The notes: generated from the sequence alone by a model not told the origin. A DNA stretch of 18,077 bases from a virus (IMGVR_UViG_3300045016_000151:1-18077), one strand, 5' to 3'; shown: positions 348 through 18,007, counted from the stretch's first letter. A program made the numbers and translations.

Positions 348-652
348 AATTTATTGACGAAGAGTTGAATACATACATAGCCAAGGTATCGGGTTATAAA
401 ATCGACACTATGGTCGACGGCCTGCTTTTATATGCAAAATTAATGAAGTTTAAAGTTTGTTTTAGCGAAAATTATAAGGAACTGGCGGTTATTGCAAATG
501 CAAACGACTTTACATGGTATTATGCTGATGAAAACTTCTTGTATATGAGATATAATGAAAACACTCGTGTTCAAACAGTACCTATTTATATAGCCACAAA
601 AGCCGTATATTCGGGAATTATAAAATGCTTAGTACAACCCCCATCAAGATGA
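344..652 (+). CDS. hypothetical protein, 102 aa
   Basis: ATGA overlaps at both ends (344 and 649-652); no recognisable motif. Confidence 0.7.
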   Translation: MKFIDEELNTYIAKVSGYKIDTMVDGLLLYAKLMKFKVCFSENYKELAVIANANDFTWYYADENFLYMRYNENTRVQTVPIYIATKAVYSGIIKCLVQPPSR

Positions 653-1863
653 ACGCTGACAAACATTTGGTAATGGTTACGACTGACAATAATAATAAAT
701 ATTACGATATGCATGATAATGATGACGGTACATTTACCGCCACATGGGGGCGTATCGGTGTCACAACGTCTAATCAGACTTACCCGATAAAACAGTGGAA
801 TAGTAAGTTTAATGAAAAGGTAAAAAAGGGTTACACAGATCAATCGCATTTATTTATAAAACCAACTACTACTTCAAAACTACTTACAATTTCCGACGGA
901 AATATTAATGCGCTCGTAACTCTGTTACAGGGTTACGCAAATAAATCGATCGATGATAATTATACGGTTGATGCAAAAGTTGTCACACAAGCACAAGTAA
1001 ATGAAGCGCAAAAAATTATGAACGAACTCACGATATTTGTGAATAAATGTTCGGTTGACGCAGATGAAGTCAATGAAAAATTAATACTGTTATACGGAGT
1101 TATTCCACGTCGTATGTCTAATGTAAAAGATCATATTCTATACAAAGACACAAATCCACAAATGAAATTACGACTACAGAATTTTATAACCGCAGAGCAA
1201 GATACATTGGACGTTATGGCCGGTCAAGTGTCCGCACAGGCTGCAACTATACAAACCACTAAATCCAATTATACAATTTTGGACGCCATCGGTGTTGAAT
1301 GCAAACTCGTTGAAGACAAACAAACAGAGCAGAAAATTCTAAAGGCTATGGGTAACGACGCCAACAGACTTTTAACTGCTTATGAAATTGTGCATACTTC
1401 CTCAGCTGATAAGTATGCTAAAAATCTCGCGAGTTCCAAAAATAAAACCACAGAACTGTATTGGCATGGGTCACGTAATGAAAATTGGTGGAGTATATTG
1501 CAAACAGGATTACTGGTACGACCTACGAACGCCGTAATAACTGGCAAGATGTTTGGGTACGGTATATATGGTGCGGACAAATTCCAAAAGTCATTTGGAT
1601 ATACGTCTGGTAATAATTCTTATTGGGCACGTGGTAATCAAAACACGGCATTCTTAGGATTATTTGAATTTCATATGGGCAATACATTAACTGTACGACG
1701 TCACGAGCATTGGCAGTCTGAATTAACTCATAAGAAATTACGTGAACGCGGAGATTATGATAGTCTTACCGCTCTAGGCGGGGCTGATCTAAGAAACAAT
1801 GAGTTTATAGTATACCAGGAAGAACAACTAACTATTCGATATCTAATAAAGGTAAAAGGATGA
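649..1863 (+). CDS. PARP-family ADP-ribosyltransferase (WGR + helical regulatory + catalytic domain)
   Basis: N-terminal NNNKYY...TWGRIG...KVKKGY (WGR domain). QVNEAQKIMNEL...LYGVIPRRM resembles the PARP helical domain. Catalytic motifs YWHGSRNENWWSILQTGL, GKMFGYGIYGAD, KSFGY, NNEFIVY give the H-Y-E triad. Start moved from 625 to ATG 649 (ATGA overlap with the upstream stop). Confidence 0.93.
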   Translation: MNADKHLVMVTTDNNNKYYDMHDNDDGTFTATWGRIGVTTSNQTYPIKQWNSKFNEKVKKGYTDQSHLFIKPTTTSKLLTISDGNINALVTLLQGYANKSIDDNYTVDAKVVTQAQVNEAQKIMNELTIFVNKCSVDADEVNEKLILLYGVIPRRMSNVKDHILYKDTNPQMKLRLQNFITAEQDTLDVMAGQVSAQAATIQTTKSNYTILDAIGVECKLVEDKQTEQKILKAMGNDANRLLTAYEIVHTSSADKYAKNLASSKNKTTELYWHGSRNENWWSILQTGLLVRPTNAVITGKMFGYGIYGADKFQKSFGYTSGNNSYWARGNQNTAFLGLFEFHMGNTLTVRRHEHWQSELTHKKLRERGDYDSLTALGGADLRNNEFIVYQEEQLTIRYLIKVKG

Positions 1864-2671: not shown

Positions 2672-2676
2672 CATGT

Positions 2677-2696
2677 GGAGAGTAGCAATACTCTCC
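2677..2696 (+). promoter_or_regulatory. perfect 8-bp RNA hairpin with GNRA (GCAA) tetraloop upstream of nadE
   Basis: GGAGAGTA-GCAA-TACTCTCC lies in the 40-nt gap, followed by SD-like AGAAAGG (2701-2707) and ATG 2712. Confidence 0.6.
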
Positions 2697-2711
2697 TTCA
2701 AGAAAGGTAAT

Positions 2712-3521
2712 ATGAAAAAACTAAACATATCTAAGGTATTATTATACCTTGTAGCACAAATACAAAAACGATTTAAAGCTGCTGGATATAGCAAAGCCAT
2801 TATTGGTTTATCTGGTGGGTTAGACAGTGCAACTGTCGCGGCATTAGCCGTTTTGGCATTAGGTCGGAAAAATGTTAGTTGTATTTATTTGCCGGCACTG
2901 GTCTCATCCGAGCGCTCTTTAAGGTTGGCAGAAGGTTTCTGTACAATTAATGAAGTATTTTTCAAGAGTAGCTCTATACAACCCATAGTCGATCGTTTTT
3001 CTGTCGAGTTGCCTATGAATTGTCTTTCGATTCCATATCAAAATTTACAGGCTCGCGTTCGCGGCGTTGTTCTTATGACTAAAGCAAATATTGATCATGG
3101 ATTAGTTATTGCAACTGGCAACAAATCCGAAAACTTAACAGGTTATTGTACATTATATGGTGACACTGTTGGCGCATTTGAGCCGCTAGGTGATTTATAT
3201 AAAACCGAAGTAATTGAATTAGCGTGTTATATTAATAAAATGACTACGGTACAAATATTGAATGAAATTATAGAACGTCCCCCTACCGCCGAATTAGCAC
3301 CAAATCAAACCGATGAAAAGGAATTGTTGCCATACGATAAGCTGGATCCGCTGCTAGATGGCTTATTAAAAGATACCTCACATAAGACGCTGGCGCGAAA
3401 ACTTCGTATTGCATTAGCGGATGTTGCGCGTATTGACCGAAGAATGAAAAACTCAGCGTTCAAGCGACGACAAACAGCACCAACTATAAAAATTCCTAAA
3501 AGGTGTTATGTCACCAGATAA
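2712..3521 (+). CDS. nadE: NH3-dependent NAD+ synthetase
   Basis: IIGLSGGLDSATVA (PP-loop SGGxDS), NLQARVRG, ATGNKSE..GYCTLYGD, PLGDLYKTEV, PPTAEL..NQTDE, AFKRR. No glutaminase domain. Start 2712 preferred over 2673 because of the SD and because 2673-2711 holds the hairpin. Confidence 0.95.
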   Translation: MKKLNISKVLLYLVAQIQKRFKAAGYSKAIIGLSGGLDSATVAALAVLALGRKNVSCIYLPALVSSERSLRLAEGFCTINEVFFKSSSIQPIVDRFSVELPMNCLSIPYQNLQARVRGVVLMTKANIDHGLVIATGNKSENLTGYCTLYGDTVGAFEPLGDLYKTEVIELACYINKMTTVQILNEIIERPPTAELAPNQTDEKELLPYDKLDPLLDGLLKDTSHKTLARKLRIALADVARIDRRMKNSAFKRRQTAPTIKIPKRCYVTR

Positions 3522-7022: not shown

Positions 7023-8114
7023 ATGAGTACATTTATAGTACCGATTGTAACTATTAAAACTGTTATTAAACATCCAAACGCCGATTCATTAGATATACTA
7101 TCGTTTGAAGAAGTATCTTGGCAATGCGTAGATAAAATTAATACACGCAAACCTGGCGACATGGTAGTATATATTCCAATTGATAGTGTAGTGGACGTCC
7201 GTCGGCCAGAATTTGAGTTCTTAAAATCAAAGGCTAAGGCTGACTATTCTTGTCGTATACGTACAATCAGATTGCGTGGCGAGATTAGCCAGGGGTTGGT
7301 TATTTCTATGCCCAGCGATATGATAAAATGGCTGTGCGATAAAATTACTGGTCATAAAGACTGCGCACAAGGTATATCGTTTGATATACCAGGGCAGGAT
7401 GTATCGGAGTATTATGGTATAAAAAAATATGAGCCACCACCAGAAAGTATACCTCCTTTATCGGCAGGTAATTATCCAAGTTGGTGTGAAAAAAGCGATG
7501 CTGAACGATATCAAAACTATAATCGCACTATTGAGCCGTTTCGAGACCATGCATTTTATAAAACTATAAAAATGGATGGTGCCAGTATAACGGTATTTTA
7601 TGATGCGGAAACAGAACATAGCGGAGTCTGCAGCCGAAACTGGGAAATTAAAGAAAATAGTGATATCACAAGACTTGACAACTATTGGCTTATCGCGAAG
7701 AAATATAATTTACTCCAAATCGTAAAAGATATTGCTATGGATAAGGGTATAAAGCGCCTTGCGTTGCAGGGAGAGATGTGTGGTCCAGGCGTTCAAGGAA
7801 ATAAGATGGGACTTTCAGAACTACAATTTTTTGCCTTTGATATGTATAATGGTGATATTGGTGAATTTATCGAATATCCTTTCTTCATTGCATTATGTCA
7901 TTATTGGAAAATACCGACCGTCGAGATTTTAGAGGTTGGTACACTTGGGAAAGAACTCGATACTAATTTTGCGTATGTGTCACAATTGAAATATGATAAT
8001 GATTTACCTGCCGAAGGTGTAGTATATGTAGCAGTTAATTCACAGCGTGTAGGTACGCTTGGTAGACTAAAATTTAAATTTATCAACCCAGAATTTTTAT
8101 TAAAATATGATTGA
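7023..8114 (+). CDS. ATP-dependent RNA ligase, DRB0094/Rnl5-like (N-terminal OB-like domain + nucleotidyltransferase domain)
   Basis: IKHPNADSLD, GDMVVYIPIDS, RIRTIRLRGEISQGL (N-domain). Motif I IKMDGAS (KxDG), LQGEMCGPGVQGN, FFAFD, EGVV, FKFINPEFLLK. Confidence 0.9.
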   Translation: MSTFIVPIVTIKTVIKHPNADSLDILSFEEVSWQCVDKINTRKPGDMVVYIPIDSVVDVRRPEFEFLKSKAKADYSCRIRTIRLRGEISQGLVISMPSDMIKWLCDKITGHKDCAQGISFDIPGQDVSEYYGIKKYEPPPESIPPLSAGNYPSWCEKSDAERYQNYNRTIEPFRDHAFYKTIKMDGASITVFYDAETEHSGVCSRNWEIKENSDITRLDNYWLIAKKYNLLQIVKDIAMDKGIKRLALQGEMCGPGVQGNKMGLSELQFFAFDMYNGDIGEFIEYPFFIALCHYWKIPTVEILEVGTLGKELDTNFAYVSQLKYDNDLPAEGVVYVAVNSQRVGTLGRLKFKFINPEFLLKYD

Positions 8115-9752: not shown

Positions 9753-10051
9753 ACGAGAAATTTATAATTCGGGGGATTACAAGTGTAATAGCATTATTTT
9801 TTGTGCTCATCACTTATTATTTGGTAGGACTTATGAGTACAATCGTAAGCATCGTTATGCCGCTAGTGTATATATTATTAGTAGATAAACTCTGCACGAG
9901 GGACTATTTAGGAGATGAACTAGTATTATATATTGTTCTTATATTTATTGTTGCAGCTATGTGCGGTTTTATATGTATAGGCACGTTTATCGCCTGGACG
10001 CTGTTAGAGTCCTTTTTTGTACATATTTGGTTAAGATCAGGTGATAAATGA
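9749..10051 (+). CDS. multi-pass membrane protein, 100 aa
   Basis: ATG 9749 in an ATGA overlap (preferred over 9695); three to four hydrophobic segments. Confidence 0.75.
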   Translation: MNEKFIIRGITSVIALFFVLITYYLVGLMSTIVSIVMPLVYILLVDKLCTRDYLGDELVLYIVLIFIVAAMCGFICIGTFIAWTLLESFFVHIWLRSGDK

Positions 10052-10386
10052 TTTATGCGGATGGTAGTGGTTGGAATGGCGAACGTTCAGCATGGGGGCT
10101 TGTTCTAAATGATGGACGTAAAGCAATTTTTGAAACCGACAAAAAACGCACAAACAACGAAACCGAATATCTAGCGGTAATTGCTGCCTGTGACTATGTT
10201 ATACGCGGAGAAGAAATATTGACAGATAGTCGTCTTGTATATGGCCAAATAAATGAAAAGTGGAAAATCAATCACGCTCATCTACATGAACTATATACCG
10301 TTTTAAAAAAACGATTGTCCGAAACAGGTGCGAGTGTCCGCTGGATTCCAAGAAAACAAAATAAAGCAGGAAAATTATTTGAATGA
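10048..10386 (+). CDS. ribonuclease HI family protein
   Basis: IYADGS, TNNETEYLAVIAA, ILTDSRLVYGQI..KWKI, WIPRKQNKAG. The D-E-D carboxylates are present; the C-terminal Asp of N-x-x-AD is replaced by G. Confidence 0.88.
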   Translation: MIYADGSGWNGERSAWGLVLNDGRKAIFETDKKRTNNETEYLAVIAACDYVIRGEEILTDSRLVYGQINEKWKINHAHLHELYTVLKKRLSETGASVRWIPRKQNKAGKLFE

Positions 10387-10606: not shown

Positions 10607-11488
10607 ATGAAAACTTCCTATTCCGAAATTGTCAGCACCAAGAAGCAGCACGATTTACTTATTGCTGCAAATCAGGAAATGCTGACTCCGGCGCACACAG
10701 ATGCGCACAACACGTTATTAATCTTAATTGATTTTCAGCAAGATTTTATGCCCAATGGGGCGCTGGGAGTACCAGGCGCAGATCAGGATGTTATGCGTGT
10801 CACAAAATGGATCTACGATAATATTGCAAAGCTTACTACGATTGCAGTTTCTATCGATACCCATAATCCTTTCCAGATATTTCACCCATGTTGGTGGGAA
10901 AACGAAAAAAGCGAAAATCCTCCTCCGTTCACTGCCATCTCTTTAGCCGATCTCGATTCTGGGAAATGGCGTCCAGTAATCTTACCAAACCATTCCCGCG
11001 AATATGTTGAAGCACTTAGTAAGTCCAACAAAAAAGTGCTTGTTATTTGGCCTTATCACTGTTTGCAGGGAACGCAAGGTTGTGCATTAGATCCCCAGAT
11101 AAGTAATATGGTATATTTTCATAGCGTGGCCAGGAAATCTATGGCTATCCGCATTGTAAAAGGCACCGATCCTGGTACTGAGATGTATGGTATTATCAAA
11201 CCAGAATGGGATCCGAAGAATTTTGTTAATATTCAGTTCCTGAATAAACTGGAACAATACCAGCAAATTGTCATTGCGGGTGAAGCAAAGTCGCATTGTG
11301 TATTAGAATCCATATTACAGATGCTTGAGCATTACAAACAAAGGCCAGAAATTACAAAACGAGTGTTTATTCTCGAAGATGCAATGAGTATTATTCCGGG
11401 GTTTGAAGGCATTACCGATGCAGCATTTAAAGATTTTAAATCCAAATATCAAGTAAATTTAACTACAACTAAGGATTTCGCACTATGA
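10607..11488 (+). CDS. pncA: nicotinamidase-like cysteine hydrolase (isochorismatase family, long form)
   Basis: LILIDFQQDF (catalytic Asp), SIDTH and IWPYHCLQGTQG (metal ligands), VKG (Lys), GEAKSHCV (Cys nucleophile). Substrate is inferred. Confidence 0.82.
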   Translation: MKTSYSEIVSTKKQHDLLIAANQEMLTPAHTDAHNTLLILIDFQQDFMPNGALGVPGADQDVMRVTKWIYDNIAKLTTIAVSIDTHNPFQIFHPCWWENEKSENPPPFTAISLADLDSGKWRPVILPNHSREYVEALSKSNKKVLVIWPYHCLQGTQGCALDPQISNMVYFHSVARKSMAIRIVKGTDPGTEMYGIIKPEWDPKNFVNIQFLNKLEQYQQIVIAGEAKSHCVLESILQMLEHYKQRPEITKRVFILEDAMSIIPGFEGITDAAFKDFKSKYQVNLTTTKDFAL

Positions 11489-12150
11489 ACGAAGAAAAAA
11501 CGGTACTTGGTTTAGATGAATTAGAGATCGAAAATACTTCTATCGAGGAAATCGATAGTGAGGAAGTACACCTAGTATGTGTAGCCGTCGATGCTTCTGG
11601 ATCTATGTCGCCATATGTCGAGGATATGAAGAAGTGTTTAGCGGACTTTAAAGGTGCGTTGACAGCATCAAAAGAAGAGAATAAAATCTTACTTGCCAGA
11701 GCAACTTTTAGTGATATTACTGATATTAGTGGCTATAAACCAATCAAGGATTTTGATGGGTCATATTCAGCCGCCGGTGGTACTACGTTGTATGATGTAA
11801 TAGTTGAAAGTGCCACAAAACTCACAGAGTACATGGATCATCTGAAGAGCCAGGGCATGCGTTGTCGCGCTGTTATTGCTGTCTTCTCTGATGGTGAAGA
11901 TACCTGTTCTCGTAAAAGCGCCGCTAAAGCACGTCAAGCCATTGAAGCTTTAAATAACAAAGAGATCACCACGGCTTTTGTATCGTTTGGCGGTGAAGCC
12001 GATACTGTAGCGAAAGATCTCGGATTTAAGAATCTTTTAACCGTGCAAAGTTCTGCACATGATTTACGAATCGCATTTAATTGTTTATCGAAATCTGTGA
12101 TCGAAAATTCAAAAGCAGTAACTCCTTCACAGGATGCGTTTTTCGTGTAA
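11485..12150 (+). CDS. von Willebrand factor A domain protein (TerY/YegL-like)
   Basis: Complete MIDAS: VAVDASGSM (DxSxS), GGTTLYD (T), VFSDGED (D). Confidence 0.9.
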   Translation: MNEEKTVLGLDELEIENTSIEEIDSEEVHLVCVAVDASGSMSPYVEDMKKCLADFKGALTASKEENKILLARATFSDITDISGYKPIKDFDGSYSAAGGTTLYDVIVESATKLTEYMDHLKSQGMRCRAVIAVFSDGEDTCSRKSAAKARQAIEALNNKEITTAFVSFGGEADTVAKDLGFKNLLTVQSSAHDLRIAFNCLSKSVIENSKAVTPSQDAFFV

Positions 12151-12158
12151 GATATTTA

Positions 12159-12191
12159 GGGTCGGGGAGTTAATCTCTCCGACCCCATTTT
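12159..12191 (+). terminator. GC-rich hairpin, putative intrinsic terminator
   Basis: GGGTCGGGGAG-TTAAT-CTCTCCGACCC (11 bp with one G-U pair) followed by CATTTT. Confidence 0.65.
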
Positions 12192-12446
12192 ATGGAAACA
12201 CGTAGATACTCGATTTGTTGTAATGCATCACCTGTACAGGAATTATGTGTATATAATCTGATATATCACGGTTTATGCAGTCGCTGTAGAGAAAACTCAA
12301 TTTTTTATACATTAGCACAATTGGAGCGTTTAGATGGTAATCAACAAAATAGGAAAATATCATTTAGATTCGGGATTGAACAAGCAGGATATTGGTTACG
12401 AGGACTCGAAGATAAAATTTGTGGCGGACGGCTGCGGAGAAAGTAA
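12192..12446 (+). CDS. small Cys-rich (Zn-binding-like) protein overlapping the phosphatase gene
   Basis: YSICCNA...GLCSRCREN motif in the N-terminal half; the last 113 nt overlap the next gene. Confidence 0.6.
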   Translation: METRRYSICCNASPVQELCVYNLIYHGLCSRCRENSIFYTLAQLERLDGNQQNRKISFRFGIEQAGYWLRGLEDKICGGRLRRK

Positions 12447-13041
12447 GTTTTCCGAGTTTGGGGTAATTATGGCTTATTGGTACTTTAAGAAATGCGCTGC
12501 GCTACGAGAACTCGAATGCGGCGCTTATATGGATACTCCACACTTAAGCCATATGTTCAATCACATTGCCTCAAGATTTGACTTAACCACAAAACCAACG
12601 GCCCTCGATCAAATAAATTTAGACTTTATCAGAGAATGTTTATTATTTACTACGCTATTACTCTTTGAAACTCAAGATACCTTCGAAGCTGAAACTATAG
12701 GAGATGGGTTTTTGATTCTTATAGATCACAATGATAAAATTACATTTGAAGAACTGGCACCAACGGAAAAATACGTCCCATTTTTTGCGTATGATTTTAT
12801 CCCTGAAACACGATTAAGCACACACAAAGATCCCATAGAAATAAAAAAGTATTCGTTTTCTAAGTCACAATATAAATGTGTTGGACTGGCTTCAGATGGA
12901 CTTCGGTTTTATTTTAAACTTCCACCGCTATTGCAAGAAGAATTTCTTAAGTTATTAATAAAAGGAAAGGAAGTACCGGTTAAGCTTTTCATAAATCGTA
13001 ATTATTCATATTTTCAGGATGATATCACAATAGTACTATGA
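12334..13041 (+). CDS. PP2C-like protein Ser/Thr phosphatase (YegK/TerY-P type)
   Basis: GKYHLDSGLNKQD, VADGCG, IGDGF, LASDGL, QDDITIV; the metal-binding Asp motifs are present. Confidence 0.85.
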   Translation: MVINKIGKYHLDSGLNKQDIGYEDSKIKFVADGCGESKFSEFGVIMAYWYFKKCAALRELECGAYMDTPHLSHMFNHIASRFDLTTKPTALDQINLDFIRECLLFTTLLLFETQDTFEAETIGDGFLILIDHNDKITFEELAPTEKYVPFFAYDFIPETRLSTHKDPIEIKKYSFSKSQYKCVGLASDGLRFYFKLPPLLQEEFLKLLIKGKEVPVKLFINRNYSYFQDDITIVL

Positions 13042-14741
13042 AAATAGATAAACGTACACTAGGTCTACCAATTGCCGAAGGCGGTGAAGGGCAAATCTAT
13101 ATTGGCAAGACTACCGGAGATGTACTTAAGGTCTTTAAACCCGGGGCTGATCTGGATGCCAAAAGAAATAAACTCGAAATATTATTACATACAAAATTAC
13201 CCACTACAGTTGTAGCTCCCAAGGATTTACTATACAATTACGCAGGTGATTTTATTGGGTATGTGATGCCTAATTTGCATGAGATTGAGGAATTTAGAGC
13301 ACTGACAAGTCGAAAAACACTTGCAGCATATAATATACATATAATAGATATTCTTCATATGCTCGTATCGGTTCGTGATACAATTTTAGAACTACATCCA
13401 CAAAATATTTTTATTGGGGATCTAAATGATGCCAATGTGGTATTTACTGGGGGGCTGGACGCGCGTATTCTTGACGTTGATAGCTGGAGCATTGGTTCTT
13501 ACCCATGTGTAGTGGCAATGGATTCATTTAAGGATCCTAAATTGAAAGGAACTAATTTTAATGCGAACACTGATGCGTATTCTTTTGCGATTTTGGCTTT
13601 TAAGAGTCTTACCAGATTACATCCGTTTGGTGGTACGGTTAGCCCTAATATGGATCTTCTTGAGCGAATGTCTAAGGGCCGTTCCGTACTAAATCCAAAA
13701 GTAAAAGCAATTATACCACGAATCATAGATCCCTGGGAATATATGTATCCAGGATTTCTCGAGGACTTGTCTCGAATATACGATCAAGGTGTTCGAATAA
13801 TGCTTGTAAAATCATTGGATGAGTTCGCAGAAAACCTAACGCGTTGTCAAGCACATGGCAATGATTACTATGCAAAGTATGATAAATGTCCGGTATGTTT
13901 TAAGGCCACATTAAAGCCGATACAACCACAAAAAGTTCCGACAACAGCTGGTATTATTATGACTAAAATATTTGCAAGTAGAGATCGTGTAGAACTTTTA
14001 AATGATAACTCGTATATAGATTCAAATGGATATGTATGTCATATAAAAACAGCGGCGCAGGCACTTATACACTTTGGCGAAAAGACTTATTTTTATGATG
14101 ACGGTACCAAGTTAACAACTAATACCGACAACATTTTTTTGGGATCGGCTACAATACCAAAATTACATAACAGTAACGTAATAATAAAGCCGGCGGATAA
14201 ACAATTCTTCTATGTTTCTCCTAACCTGACACTACATAAGTGCAATATTGTTGGTGCGGCAGGAGTCTCGCCACAGGTATTAGCGCATGTTGCTATAAAT
14301 CACGTTTATTCAGTGGCTTCTGATTCATATTGTGTTATTAATTTTTATGATCATAAAACTATTATTGAAACCGATAAAAATTTTATCGAGTTAGCCGATA
14401 TTATTCGACCGACAAGCTACGGACTGCATTATGATGATATTACTAAAAGATGGTTATTTATATATGAATCTACGACGGGTAAGTTCGTCACATATGTCAT
14501 TGAGAAAACAAACGTCTTATTTAAGAATGATGCATTAAGATATAATGTACCTTTAGATTCTTTAGCATTTCATTCAAATACTATTTATACTGCGCACACT
14601 GATTTAGTGCGCGGATATAATTGGAAGAAAAATGAATATAAAGATTTTAACTGCATAGGTACTGAGGAAGGTGCAATGCTAATGTTCAAGGGTAAGAAAA
14701 TCATTATTATTAATCAAAAAGAAATATATGAGGCAGGTTAA
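13038..14741 (+). CDS. Ser/Thr protein kinase (YegI/TerY-P type) with Zn knuckle and long C-terminal domain
   Basis: IAEGGEGQIY (Gly loop), VLKVFK (Lys), IGDLNDANV (catalytic loop), ILDVDSW, DAYSFAILAF..LTRLHPFGG; then CQAH...CPVC and a beta-rich tail of about 270 aa. Confidence 0.9.
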   Translation: MKIDKRTLGLPIAEGGEGQIYIGKTTGDVLKVFKPGADLDAKRNKLEILLHTKLPTTVVAPKDLLYNYAGDFIGYVMPNLHEIEEFRALTSRKTLAAYNIHIIDILHMLVSVRDTILELHPQNIFIGDLNDANVVFTGGLDARILDVDSWSIGSYPCVVAMDSFKDPKLKGTNFNANTDAYSFAILAFKSLTRLHPFGGTVSPNMDLLERMSKGRSVLNPKVKAIIPRIIDPWEYMYPGFLEDLSRIYDQGVRIMLVKSLDEFAENLTRCQAHGNDYYAKYDKCPVCFKATLKPIQPQKVPTTAGIIMTKIFASRDRVELLNDNSYIDSNGYVCHIKTAAQALIHFGEKTYFYDDGTKLTTNTDNIFLGSATIPKLHNSNVIIKPADKQFFYVSPNLTLHKCNIVGAAGVSPQVLAHVAINHVYSVASDSYCVINFYDHKTIIETDKNFIELADIIRPTSYGLHYDDITKRWLFIYESTTGKFVTYVIEKTNVLFKNDALRYNVPLDSLAFHSNTIYTAHTDLVRGYNWKKNEYKDFNCIGTEEGAMLMFKGKKIIIINQKEIYEAG

Positions 14742-14995: not shown

Positions 14996-15253
14996 ATGAA
15001 CTGGAAATGCTGTAAAAAGACAATTGTCGATGCCCTCTATAACTATGACTTAATTGATATTCGATATAAGATTATCGGTTGCCTAGGTAGTATGTTAATA
15101 GGAAGTATTATTTATATTTTCGATCATAGTTTGGAAGGCCTTTTGTATTGGTGTTTTGGTGCAATTATGCCATGGCCTATTATTCATGTGTTAGTACGTA
15201 CGAAAGAATGGTATGAAAGCTACGTTACTTATCGAGAACAAAGACTTCATTAA
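14996..15253 (+). CDS. small membrane protein, 85 aa
   Basis: Two hydrophobic segments (IIGCLGSMLIGSIIYIF; LLYWCFGAIMPWPIIHVLV). Confidence 0.7.
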   Translation: MNWKCCKKTIVDALYNYDLIDIRYKIIGCLGSMLIGSIIYIFDHSLEGLLYWCFGAIMPWPIIHVLVRTKEWYESYVTYREQRLH

Positions 15254-16286
15254 AAAATACTCTAATGAGTACGGGGAAAGATTAGTATTAATAACACCAC
15301 AGTATCAGGGGTGTGCTTGGGACAAGATGAACCTGATATTTCGAAGTTCTATCTGGACCGAAGACGGTTATTTAGTTAGCCCCAGCTTTCCAAAGTTTTT
15401 TAATTGGAATGAAAAAGATAATTTAGTACCGCCTCCGCAGAGTTTAATCAATACTACGGCTGTAGAGAAGATCGACGGTAGTGCATTAATAGTAACTCCT
15501 TACAAAGGACAACTTATCATACGTACACGAGGTACATTTAATGCCGATATTTTTGAGAATTTTGATGAAATCAAGTTTTTCAAAAAAGAGTTTCCCAAGG
15601 CATTTGATTTTTCTGATGAAACATGCACCCGTATATTTGAATGGTATAGTCCAAAAAATAAAATTGTATTGGATTTAGGAAAAACTCCGCGATTGTTCTT
15701 AGTAGGTATAATAAGGCACGAAGACTATAGTTTATACACTCAAGCTTCATTGGACCTCATAGCTCGTCAGCTTGGCGTTGAAAGGCCTGCATCTTTTACT
15801 TTTGAATCTGTAGAGCATTTATTAGAGGAGGTACAAAGATTCGATGGTAAGGAGGGGGTCTGTTTATACTATGATTTGGATCAACACATAAAAAAGATCA
15901 AAGGCGATAAATATTTGGCTGTGCACGCATTTAAAAGCGATCTCAGTATAAATAATTTATTGGAAGCCTATACACTTTATGGTAGACCCAAGTACCAAGA
16001 TTTTTATAATTATATTGCCAATACATATGATTTTGAATGCGCTGAAATAGCTAAAGGAGACATTTCAAGATTATGTGATGCCAATAAGGAAGTTGAAAAA
16101 ATAGTCGAGCATATGAAAGTATTTGCGAATGATTGTAAATTACTGTCTCGAAAAGAAGCCGCGTTAAAGATTACACAAGCCTACGGCAAAACCAGCCGTG
16201 CGGGATTTGTGTTTACATTATTAGACGGCCGGCAGCTCGACGCGGAAGCATACAAAAAACTCTTACATCAGGTGATACCAAAATGA
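15213..16286 (+). CDS. T4 Rnl1-like ATP-dependent RNA ligase
   Basis: FRSSIW...SFPKFFNWNE, motif I EKIDGS, RTRGT, IFEWYSPKNKIV, EGVC, KIKGDKY. Confidence 0.88.
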   Translation: MKATLLIENKDFIKKYSNEYGERLVLITPQYQGCAWDKMNLIFRSSIWTEDGYLVSPSFPKFFNWNEKDNLVPPPQSLINTTAVEKIDGSALIVTPYKGQLIIRTRGTFNADIFENFDEIKFFKKEFPKAFDFSDETCTRIFEWYSPKNKIVLDLGKTPRLFLVGIIRHEDYSLYTQASLDLIARQLGVERPASFTFESVEHLLEEVQRFDGKEGVCLYYDLDQHIKKIKGDKYLAVHAFKSDLSINNLLEAYTLYGRPKYQDFYNYIANTYDFECAEIAKGDISRLCDANKEVEKIVEHMKVFANDCKLLSRKEAALKITQAYGKTSRAGFVFTLLDGRQLDAEAYKKLLHQVIPK

Positions 16287-16690
16287 ATATAAAATTAGGA
16301 TCAAAGATCGTTCCTCGCAAAAATAGTAATAGTCATAACTATGAACTCGGCAAAACATATGAAGTGTATACACATCCAATATCTATGGGTGCGGTCTGTA
16401 CATTTTCAGCAAAAGACCCAGTAACCGGTACAATTGGAAATACTTTACTCAGTACGGACTGCGAACTAGCGATAGTTACTAGAGATGAACTAAAAGAGGA
16501 ACTTGAGCGGTTAGAGAGGGAAATCGACCTTGTTCAGGCGAAACTTGACTGGATGGATGAATTTAATGCAGATACACTTAATCCAGAAGAATTTCGTGTT
16601 TTTCATATATTACAAGAAGCCAATTATACTGGAAAAACGTTACTTGAGCGATCTCGAGCTATAGTGAAGATTCTGAACGAAAATGCCTAA
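16283..16690 (+). CDS. hypothetical protein with coiled-coil segment
   Basis: ATGA-coupled; heptad-like RDELKEELERLEREIDLVQAKL. Confidence 0.7.
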   Translation: MNIKLGSKIVPRKNSNSHNYELGKTYEVYTHPISMGAVCTFSAKDPVTGTIGNTLLSTDCELAIVTRDELKEELERLEREIDLVQAKLDWMDEFNADTLNPEEFRVFHILQEANYTGKTLLERSRAIVKILNENA

Positions 16691-17102
16691 GAAAATATCT
16701 GCCGGTGCCATTATCACTGATGGCACCGTGTTTCTTGTATGCCACGCAACAGGACAGAAAATTTGGGATATTCCCAAAGGTGGTGTTGATCCTAATGAGA
16801 ATTTTCTTGAAGCGTGCATTCGTGAGGTCAAAGAAGAAACTAACTATGATGTACCAGAGACAGCTGTAATCGAGGAACTTGGACAGTTTACATATTTACC
16901 GGCCAAAGATCTCTATTTATTCAAGATCACTGTTGAGCCGTTACCTAATATCGATTATATGAAATGTACGTCGATGGTAAATCTTCCAGACAAACCTCCA
17001 TTTCCCGAGGTTAACGCATTTAAGTATATTTATCCAAGGGTTGCTGATGAATATATATCACAAAATCTAAAACGCACATTAGTAATGGCAGGAGTACTAT
17101 GA
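16683..17102 (+). CDS. Nudix hydrolase
   Basis: Nudix box G-GVDPN-E-NFLEACI-REVKEET preceded by WDIPK; substrate unknown. Confidence 0.92.
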   Translation: MPKKISAGAIITDGTVFLVCHATGQKIWDIPKGGVDPNENFLEACIREVKEETNYDVPETAVIEELGQFTYLPAKDLYLFKITVEPLPNIDYMKCTSMVNLPDKPPFPEVNAFKYIYPRVADEYISQNLKRTLVMAGVL

Positions 17103-17290: not shown

Positions 17291-18007
17291 ATGGAATTAA
17301 TAACACTATACACATGTAAAATAGGTTCACACGCTTATGGATTGGCTACACCAGAATCCGATTTAGATCTTCGCGGAGTTGTTGTACCAAATGATCTATC
17401 ATATTTTTTTGGTTTAAATTTCTTTGAACAAGAAATATACAAAGATCAGGAAGATCATGTTGCCTGGAATTTACAAAAATTTGCAAAACTCGCGGCCGCA
17501 GCTAATACACAAATGCTTGAAATGTTATTTAGTAGCGAAGAGCACATTATAACACTTCATCCATTATTTAATAAATATTTTTTAAAGAATCGTGATAAAT
17601 TCTTAACAAATAAAATTTATGACGTCATTAATGGTTATGCTGGCAGCGAATATCGAAAAGCCTTAGGAGAATCATCTCGAGATCTTGGTGCAGTACGCAA
17701 AGAAGATATAAATAACTTTGGTTACTCATGTCGTAATGCATCTCATTGTGTACGGCTACTTTATGCCGCCACGCATGCGCTGAGCACCGGAGTCTTTCCA
17801 GTCATGCTTCCAAAGGATATAAGAAACACATGTATGCAGTTAAAAAGAGGTGTAAGTACACTAAGCGAGTTTAAAATTGCTTATGAGTTTTGGACTGTTA
17901 TGCTTTTTGAAGCAAAATTAAGAAGCGTGCTTAAAGATGAGTTCGATTATAATTGGTTAAATCAAATGTTGGTAAATATACATAAGGACTTATTATGCAA
18001 AAATTAA
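17291..18007 (+). CDS. Pol-beta superfamily nucleotidyltransferase (RlaP-like, RNA-ligase-associated)
   Basis: GSHAYGLATPESDLDLRGV (GS...DxD), NTQMLEML, helical C-terminal lobe. Confidence 0.85.
   Translation: MELITLYTCKIGSHAYGLATPESDLDLRGVVVPNDLSYFFGLNFFEQEIYKDQEDHVAWNLQKFAKLAAAANTQMLEMLFSSEEHIITLHPLFNKYFLKNRDKFLTNKIYDVINGYAGSEYRKALGESSRDLGAVRKEDINNFGYSCRNASHCVRLLYAATHALSTGVFPVMLPKDIRNTCMQLKRGVSTLSEFKIAYEFWTVMLFEAKLRSVLKDEFDYNWLNQMLVNIHKDLLCKN

Follow-up and report, generated by a model that had tools for sequence, protein, structure and literature searches.

A nicotinamidase-like gene precedes a TerY-P-like vWA, phosphatase and kinase triad in a large tailed phage and in bacterial NAD+ salvage loci

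The window analysed here is the whole 18,077-nucleotide stretch IMGVR_UViG_3300045016_000151:1-18077, which makes up the first 18 kb of a virus record (215,016 bp) rated complete by CheckV. Every sizeable open reading frame (ORF) in the window lies on the + strand, and the genes are tightly packed. Four intact, co-oriented genes form the cassette examined in this work, encoding in order a nicotinamidase-like hydrolase, a von Willebrand factor A (vWA) protein, a PP2C-type phosphatase and a Ser/Thr kinase (Table 1), all where the initial annotation had placed them. The two ATGA overlaps described there could also be read directly: the stop codon of the hydrolase gene overlaps the start of the vWA gene at 11485-11488 (...CTATGAAC), and that of the PP2C gene overlaps the start of the kinase gene at 13038-13041 (...CTATGAAA). 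The vWA and PP2C genes are uncoupled, with a gap of 183 bp between them. A terminator-like hairpin at 12159-12185, with an RNA folding energy of -21.9 kcal/mol (z -3.85 relative to shuffles), could act as a terminator or attenuator. Just past the hairpin begins an 84-aa Cys-rich ORF (12192-12446), which shares 113 nt with the start of the PP2C gene. This ORF was considered as a fifth component and rejected, having no family match and no equivalent seen in relatives, and is probably not a gene.

Table 1. Features of the cassette and genes of related function. Positions refer to the window, except those with the prefix G000:C1, which refer to the complete virus record.
Feature	Position	Strand	Size or extent	Supporting evidence
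Nicotinamidase-like cysteine amidohydrolase	10607..11488	+	293 aa	
TerY/YegL-like vWA protein	11485..12150	+	221 aa	
Terminator-like hairpin	12159..12185	+	11-bp stem, 8 G-C pairs, then T-run	Pattern scan
PP2C-type Ser/Thr phosphatase	12334..13041	+	235 aa	
Kinase, whole ORF	13038..14741	+	567 aa	
Hanks-type Ser/Thr kinase domain	13038..13832	+	aa 1-265 of 567-aa protein	
Zinc-ribbon-like element	13836..13907	+	aa 267-290	C270-x2-H ... C284-P-x-C287
C-terminal all-beta domain, predicted beta-propeller	13935..14738	+	aa 300-567	
WGR + PARP-catalytic-domain protein	625..1863	+		Pfam PARP E 2.4e-22, WGR E 2.4e-6
NadE, NH3-dependent NAD+ synthase	2673..3521	+		Pfam NAD_synthase E 1.3e-60; TIGR00552, 182 bits (cut-off 63.65)
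Nudix hydrolase, downstream of cassette	16683..17102	+		Pfam NUDIX E 1.5e-14
PncB	G000:C1:122641-124038			NF006695, 597 bits (cut-off 469)
NadD	G000:C1:134355-134921			TIGR00482, 139.7 bits (cut-off 112.45)

Single-sequence Pfam scans gave weak support, with PP2C_2 the only match among the four proteins to clear its cut-off, and identities were therefore drawn from family profiles, predicted structures and homologues. The catalytic motifs previously claimed for all four proteins were present, and were invariant or nearly so in the family alignments. In the hydrolase, the Asp-Lys-Cys triad (D42, K185 and C231) and the Asp/His/His metal site that distinguishes nicotinamidases (D84 and H86 of the D-x-H motif, and H151, the His of WPxHC) were invariant in 32 homologues. 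A profile of these homologues, compared with the Protein Data Bank (PDB), placed nicotinamidases and pyrazinamidases alone at the top (yeast Pnc1, E 1.1e-18). The NCBIfam model PRK11609 matched the N-terminus with E 2.3e-11, under its cut-off. The AF2 model was of high predicted accuracy (pLDDT 96.2), and 17/17 of its best Foldseek matches in the PDB were nicotinamidases. By sequence and predicted structure, the product of gene 1 is a divergent nicotinamidase-family enzyme related to PncA and Pnc1. These data suggest that its substrate is probably, though not certainly, nicotinamide.

The vWA protein matched Pfam VWA weakly (19.8 bits against a cut-off of 23.8, E 1e-3) and phrog_7371 with E 3.7e-9. 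It carries a full metal-ion-dependent adhesion site (MIDAS), D36-x-S38-x-S40 with T100 and D136. D36, S40, T100 and D136 were invariant in 29 homologues; position 38 is Ser or Thr, and Thr in sequences from the candidate phyla radiation (CPR). Its family profile aligned with Escherichia coli K-12 YegL (hhalign probability 94%, E 1.3e-7). The phosphatase cleared the PP2C_2 cut-off (36.4 bits against 24, E 5.2e-9), and its metal-binding Asp motifs (D19, D32-G33, G123-D124-G125, D188-G189 and D229-D230) were invariant in 28 homologues. The PP2C profile aligned with E. coli K-12 PphC, also named YegK (90.6%, E 1.3e-6).

Single-sequence scans of the kinase against Pfam and PHROG gave no match. The Gly-rich loop (14-18), K31, D128, N133 and D146/D148 are nevertheless present, with the loop, K31, D128, N133 and D146 invariant in 31 homologues. 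Full-length members of the family are about 565 aa long, and most of 120 among the matches listed carry PF00069 (Pkinase). The kinase profile aligned with E. coli K-12 YegI (98.8%, E 5.5e-17) over a region that spans the CPxC zinc ribbon. In Foldseek, too, the kinase domain fitted YegI better than any other Swiss-Prot model (residues 8-287, rmsd 3.1 A), and other protein kinases matched as well. The zinc-ribbon-like element lies directly after the kinase domain and aligns with the C...CPWC element of YegI; its residues C270, C284, P285 and C287 were invariant in the same 31 homologues. From residue 298 onward the AF2 model (pLDDT 91.4) consists of about 28 beta-strands. Foldseek matches to the full-length protein were kinase-plus-propeller proteins, namely LRRK2 kinase-WD40, RqkA, PkwA and PknD. 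The predicted propeller is presumed to be the sensor or partner-binding part of the kinase.

In its published definition (PMC11090510), TerY-P combines a TerY-like vWA protein with a PP2C and with a kinase whose C-terminus carries a zinc ribbon. On its sequence features the triad in the window fits this definition, as remote homologues of YegL, PphC and YegI, and the likeness to TerY-P and YegLKI drawn in the initial annotation is upheld by the profile and Foldseek comparisons. The propeller past the ribbon lies outside the published definition. Membership in the anti-phage TerY-P subtype was examined and rejected: no PADLOC match was obtained, and the propeller occupies the position at which the defence-type kinase described by Gao carries a C-terminal OB fold (PMC11090510). 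Among the PADLOC models, the hydrolase, vWA protein and PP2C were unmatched, while the kinase gave chance-level matches only (E >= 0.011), none of them to the TerY-P model. Weak NCBIfam and PADLOC matches of the kinase to the kinase domains of LanKC, MAD6, MkoA and PD-T4-6 (E >= 2.8e-4) reflect the generic kinase fold only.

With the kinase family as anchor, 74 loci were gathered from one-genome-per-species bacterial collections, together with 72 viral contigs. Bacterial counts given below rest on the 63 loci with a real kinase relative. The order hydrolase-vWA-PP2C-kinase on one strand was found in 57-59 of these 63 loci, the remainder being cut by contig ends. It was also found in most of the viral contigs and, by exact look-up, in a related assembly contig (L002). 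Because the same order recurs in more than 100 independent loci, from at least four bacterial phyla plus phages and down to 30% identity, the arrangement is far beyond chance. The linkage of the hydrolase and vWA genes, on which the initial annotation had leaned, is conserved across phyla. Relative to a Clostridia metagenome-assembled genome (MAG), identities were 57% for the hydrolase, 53% for the vWA protein, 33% for PP2C and 34% for the kinase. The hydrolase and vWA protein are the more conserved of the two pairs, and all four diverge in parallel.

Among the carriers of the cassette are Lachnospiraceae, with cultured examples in Lachnospiraceae bacterium A4 and Diplocloster hominis, as well as other Clostridia, CPR bacteria such as the Saccharibacteria, and MAGs of Treponema, Prevotella and Muribaculaceae. 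In the CPR loci the kinase domain alone is still alignable to the phage kinase, with the hydrolase (30-35% identity) and vWA genes in place. In a tree of the hydrolase, two large phage contigs related to the window grouped with it at support 100/99, inside a clade that otherwise holds sequences from Lachnospiraceae, Clostridia and IMG/VR; CPR sequences formed a deep second branch. The cassette is not peculiar to phages, and the initial annotation needs correcting on this point. It is a cellular module of the NAD regulon, also carried by phages and prophages, and most likely one that phages borrowed. In a Prevotella MAG (L021), the hydrolase is near-identical to that of D. hominis (L028) and the whole cassette has the same spacing, which suggests either that it moved recently on a mobile element or that binning went wrong.

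Neighbouring genes were counted by clustering all ORFs of the bacterial loci. Beyond the core genes, the commonest neighbours were NadE (15 loci), a Prs-like protein (12), NadV (11) and NrtR (9), and 24 of the 63 loci had at least one of these within 8 kb. Three arrangements were found. In Lachnospiraceae, pncA-prs-nadV-nadE-nrtR lies downstream of the cassette. In Clostridia, prs-nadV is immediately upstream on the same strand and nadE is divergent. In CPR bacteria, nadE-nrtR lies upstream or NAD genes occupy both flanks, which also hold PncB, canonical PncA, a NadM-like protein and PnuC.

Operators were common to the cassette and these neighbours. According to Rodionov et al. 2008 (PMC2330246), an NrtR box is a 21-bp palindrome built around a GT-N7-AC core, and NrtR leaves DNA on binding ADP-ribose, a product of NAD+ cleavage. 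The sequence TAGTGT-N7-ACACTA (<=1 mismatch) occurred at 28 sites in 182 kb of CPR loci, compared with 0.35 in shuffles, and at 4 sites in the other 2.2 Mb of loci. In the CPR loci these boxes lie directly upstream of the hydrolase gene, nadE, nrtR, pncA and pncB. In 14 Lachnospiraceae loci, the hydrolase gene is preceded, at a distance of about 20-80 bp, by a different 21-bp palindrome, TTATTATC-N5-GATAATAA. Thirteen of these loci came from the genome scan (L007, L009, L011, L014, L015, L018, L019, L020, L024, L026, L027, L029 and L032), and the fourteenth, L150, is the same contig as L007. The same palindrome precedes the pncA-prs-nadV-nadE operon in 3 of these loci, and overall it occurred at 30 sites compared with 4.7 expected. 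Its positions include L007:5479; L009:399/5923/5978; L020:5514/11136/11191; and L029:5554/11609/11664. Candidates for its regulator are a divergent NrtR, NiaR or another protein. Judging by these operators, the cassette is co-regulated with NAD+ salvage in bacteria.

The contig that carries the window is a genuine tailed phage and not chromosomal, as the presence of terminase, tail sheath and baseplate genes shows; this settles the viral origin that had been taken from the window alone. A PHROG scan of the large ORFs of the record identified the large terminase (G000:C1:181996-184656, E 6e-53), a tail sheath gene (154812-156455), a baseplate wedge protein (82186-83538) and a head-maturation-protease-like protein. 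Pfam Baseplate_J matched weakly, and the Pfam models Terminase_6N, Terminase_6C, TerL_ATPase, Phage_capsid and Phage_sheath_1C had no match anywhere in the phage genome. Within the terminase ORF (886 aa; L159:3997-6657, minus strand), the large-terminase match is confined to residues 511-877. Residues 138-270 gave a thymidylate-synthase-like PHROG match and may represent a fusion or an inserted element. The four-gene block was found near-verbatim in lake-water metagenome DNA runs, some of which may be the source sample of the contig. Megablast of the block against GenBank phages gave no match, and tblastn of the kinase against the same set gave only five weak metagenomic matches, all unannotated.

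RNA-repair-type genes flank the cassette in the window, encoding an Rnl2-like RNA ligase (7023-8114), an RNase H (10048-10386), a T4 Rnl1-like ligase (15213-16286) and an RlaP-like nucleotidyltransferase (17291-18007). Related phage contigs have an identical order of RNA-repair genes, plus a PNKP-like kinase-phosphatase.

The phage also encodes further NAD+ enzymes (Table 1). By gene content, the hydrolase, PncB, NadD and NadE would together cover every step of the Preiss-Handler route that leads from nicotinamide to NAD+. Complete gene sets for this route have been described in jumbo phages, many of them from the gut. The present record, at 215,016 bp, has both the size (>200 kb) and the gene content (all salvage or Preiss-Handler genes) by which such NAD-jumbo phages were delimited (PMC11662467). 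The tie to NAD+ metabolism proposed in the initial annotation gains strength from the bacterial salvage clusters and their NrtR operators, and from PncB, NadD and NadE in the phage. The uses suggested there (host takeover, counter-defence or exclusion of competing phages), and a kinase toggled by nicotinamide status, are conjecture. Membership of the phage in NARP1, NARP2 or NARP3, the last consisting of PnuC and NadR (PMC13464706), was considered and rejected. No Prs-like or NadV homologue was found in the record by tblastn, and its sole NAPRTase-family gene is PncB; PnuC and NadR were not searched for in this record.

A gene for a WGR and PARP-domain protein heads the same gene array as the cassette, and its product likely consumes NAD+ and sets nicotinamide free. 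PARPs and sirtuins are inhibited by nicotinamide, and yeast Pnc1 relieves this inhibition of Sir2. On this basis, the hydrolase might serve to clear nicotinamide and so keep the WGR-PARP-like protein and other ADP-ribosyl transferases active, with recycling of NAD+ secondary. The WGR-PARP gene belongs to the same co-oriented array, 9 kb upstream of the cassette, and genes for NadE and a Nudix hydrolase are nearby, an arrangement that would suit such a role. Related contigs keep NadE, Nudix and cassette together, and the Nudix gene holds the same relative place downstream of the kinase in L002 and in a JGI contig. We nevertheless consider nicotinamide clearance very unlikely as the main function. 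ORF clustering found no PARP-like neighbour in most bacterial cassette loci, the complete phage PncB-NadD-NadE set points to recycling, and clearance accounts for the enzyme but not for the triad.

The explanation that best fits these data is that the four genes form one unit of NAD+ salvage, in which a nicotinamidase is wired to a TerY-P-type phospho-switch. That the cassette is functionally tied to NAD+ salvage is highly likely. The whole explanation, mechanism included, stands about evenly balanced between being right and wrong. Gene identities, synteny, operators common with NAD genes and the gene content of the phage pathway are observed, while the substrate of the hydrolase, the direction of phosphorylation and the benefit to the phage we infer. 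Under this explanation, cleavage of NAD+ would yield ADP-ribose and nicotinamide, and the cassette enzyme would convert nicotinamide to nicotinate, through Cys231, Asp42 and Lys185 and with a metal held on Asp84, His86 and His151. Nicotinate would enter the Preiss-Handler route, in which PncB, NadD and NadE would rebuild NAD+. In bacteria the cassette would be transcribed with or beside nadE, prs-nadV, pncA, pncB and nrtR, behind NrtR operators. Since NrtR senses ADP-ribose, it would switch on during cleavage of NAD+ to ADP-ribose and nicotinamide.

The kinase may sense a signal through its propeller and, with the PP2C, set the phosphorylation state of a target for which the vWA MIDAS site would provide a docking element. 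Candidates for this target are the hydrolase, the vWA protein and a salvage enzyme encoded nearby. Through reversible phosphorylation the triad would control how active the nicotinamidase is or which partners it binds, or would do the same for a neighbouring salvage step. As PncB, NadD and NadE are phage-encoded, the cassette in the phage would open a phage-owned pathway from nicotinamide to NAD+. The phage might thereby secure the NAD+ that replication and its own consumers, among them the PARP-like protein, require, and blunt NAD+-depleting defences. A stronger form, in which the triad directly gates the nicotinamidase on NAD+ breakdown and, in phages, provides a fourth, nicotinate-based route of NAD+ reconstitution that defeats NAD+-depleting immunity, is speculative and on balance unlikely.

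A number of observations weigh against NAD+ salvage by a regulated nicotinamidase, and some of them favour other explanations. The hydrolase scored below the cut-offs of Pfam Isochorismatase PF00857 (22.7 bits against 27) and NCBIfam PncA NF008623 (43.9 bits against 174). Its N-terminus is extended by about 35 aa, and the stretch inserted between D-x-H and WPxHC is longer; with these extra segments its substrate could differ from nicotinamide. A canonical short PncA is also encoded in several bacterial cassette loci, so the cassette enzyme is not simply 'the' salvage nicotinamidase. Instead of nicotinamide, the enzyme may deamidate nicotinamide mononucleotide (NMN), nicotinamide riboside or NAD+ itself, yielding the nicotinate form, or may have some other amide as its substrate. 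With NadV supplying NMN from nicotinamide, and with NadE, a shunt regulated by the triad would then run from NMN through nicotinate mononucleotide (NaMN) and nicotinate adenine dinucleotide (NaAD) to NAD+. The commonest partners of the cassette, which are NadE and prs-nadV and not PncB, fit a deamidase acting after NadV. A different substrate seems rather unlikely to us, given that the full nicotinamidase triad and metal site are invariant, that the nearest solved structures are all nicotinamidases, and that PncB, a user of free nicotinate, accompanies the cassette in the phage and in two CPR loci.

Further points concern the unity of the cassette. In the phage, the hairpin divides it into two ATGA-coupled gene pairs, and some large phage-like contigs have a reordered or incomplete set. 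One of these has PP2C-Nudix-kinase with no hydrolase or vWA gene within 10 kb (L156:8373-11698), another has the hydrolase relocated downstream of the kinase (L139:6610-10773), and in a third the vWA gene adjoins a NadE-like gene, 5 kb from PP2C-kinase (L138:817-9692). Phage accessory regions are mosaics, and an ordinary salvage nicotinamidase could stand beside an unrelated signalling triad, parted from part of it by the hairpin and gap, with no functional coupling. The retention of gene order across phyla at such low identity, the ATGA overlap of the hydrolase and vWA genes and the divergence of the four proteins in step all argue against this; it is strongly disfavoured, and we regard it as extremely improbable.

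Regulation adds other points on the same side. In 39 of the 63 bacterial loci no NAD gene lies within 8 kb of the cassette, and the Lachnospiraceae palindrome has no GT-N7-AC core, which leaves NrtR unproven as its regulator. Neither the NrtR box nor the Lachnospiraceae palindrome occurs in the window at <=2 mismatches, and tblastn with the Lachnospiraceae NrtR found no homologue in the phage record. NrtR-type control of the phage copy was therefore rejected for the window, and its control must differ. The sequencing-run search found the block in DNA metagenomes only, with no RNA run among those listed.

The last of these points concern gene neighbourhoods. Upstream of the cassette in Lachnospiraceae bacterium A4 lies a pair of ParB_N and PAPS-reductase/DUF3440 genes (L027:21-1981), and downstream a MoxR(AAA_5)-DUF5682-VWA_CoxE-SWIM set (L027:9918-16512), surroundings that look like a conflict-system neighbourhood. 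Anti-restriction genes (Lar) and a methylase lie near the cassette in L151. In L152, a 244-kb phage-like contig, a Tad8-family gene (PF25189; L152:12560-12814) is two genes downstream of the kinase. Such surroundings would suit a conflict system, in which the triad serves TerY-P-type defence or superinfection exclusion with the nicotinamidase as effector. The kinase and vWA sensor would detect infection or NAD+ cleavage, and the enzyme would then destroy nicotinamide. This would block the nicotinamide-dependent routes of a competitor (Namat of NARP1, NadV of NARP2), while a carrier with PncB-NadD-NadE could still rebuild NAD+. NARP1 and NARP2 do use nicotinamide (bioRxiv 10.1101/2024.02.11.579819), and TerY-P-like triads act as stand-alone anti-phage systems and also accompany restriction-type systems, as stated in PMC11090510, which cites Gao 2020 and Anantharaman 2012. 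The cassette is, moreover, mobile between phages, prophage-like elements and chromosomes. A conflict system nonetheless appears fairly improbable. No PADLOC model, kinase-based ones included, matched beyond E 0.01, and the kinase has a propeller where the Gao-type one has the OB fold. In Clostridia the cassette lies in a same-strand run with prs-nadV, which itself turns nicotinamide into NAD+, and in small CPR genomes it sits within NrtR-controlled salvage clusters. Complex prediction for the hydrolase and vWA protein with custom alignments scored 0.00, which counts neither for nor against an association.

TerY-P triads are common but enigmatic in signal and target; here one is permanently joined to an enzyme with readable chemistry. 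If the stronger form, with direct gating of the nicotinamidase, were right, it would be the first physiological output assigned to this widespread vWA/PP2C/kinase module. The embedding of the triad in a well-understood pathway and regulon, NAD+ salvage and NrtR, offers direct and cheap assays of the switch. For phage biology, a regulated nicotinate-based branch would be added to the contest over NAD+ between phages and bacterial immunity. Regulated salvage also suggests an unstudied layer of post-translational control of NAD+ recycling in CPR bacteria and gut Lachnospiraceae.

Literature searches found no published description of the four-gene unit, and a survey of viral NAD+ and ADP-ribose systems (PMC9503650) mentions neither nicotinamidase, PncA, PP2C nor TerY. 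Its parts nevertheless have close counterparts. The hydrolase has the fold, triad and metal site of PncA and Pnc1 (EC 3.5.1.19; yeast Pnc1 2h0r, Acinetobacter 2wta, Mycobacterium tuberculosis PncA 3pl1). It is, however, about 100 aa longer, at 293 aa compared with about 180-216 aa for PncA, through N- and C-terminal extensions and the insert. Unlike PncA, it is always encoded with the kinase, phosphatase and vWA set, and often has a canonical short PncA alongside it. NrtR regulons (PMC2330246) have the same type of box as that found before the CPR cassette and the NAD genes of the same loci, but the cassette genes are not among the regulon members given in the excerpted text, and the core of the Lachnospiraceae palindrome differs from the published GT-N7-AC.

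Among phages, NARP1, NARP2 and NARP3 (bioRxiv 10.1101/2024.02.11.579819; PMC13464706) likewise rebuild NAD+ from its breakdown products with phage-encoded enzymes. They use Adps/Namat, NadV/NMNAT or PnuC/NadR, whereas the route of the present phage would run via nicotinate (PncA-like enzyme, PncB, NadD and NadE). The account of NAD-jumbo phages (PMC11662467) contains no occurrence of a kinase, phosphatase or von Willebrand/vWA protein.

The triad itself has the protein families, and the vWA, PP2C, kinase order, of E. coli yegL-pphC-(yegJ)-yegI, and YegI has its zinc ribbon right after the kinase domain, as does the kinase of the window. Unlike in TerY-P triads, a nicotinamidase-type gene always leads the set. 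The propeller aligns neither with the rest of YegI nor with the OB fold of defence-type TerY-P, and the neighbours are NAD+ salvage genes and NrtR, not the tellurite-resistance or restriction genes that accompany TerY-P. The four-gene unit is a variation on two known kinds of system, the TerY-P triad and the NAD-salvage regulon, and not a new category.

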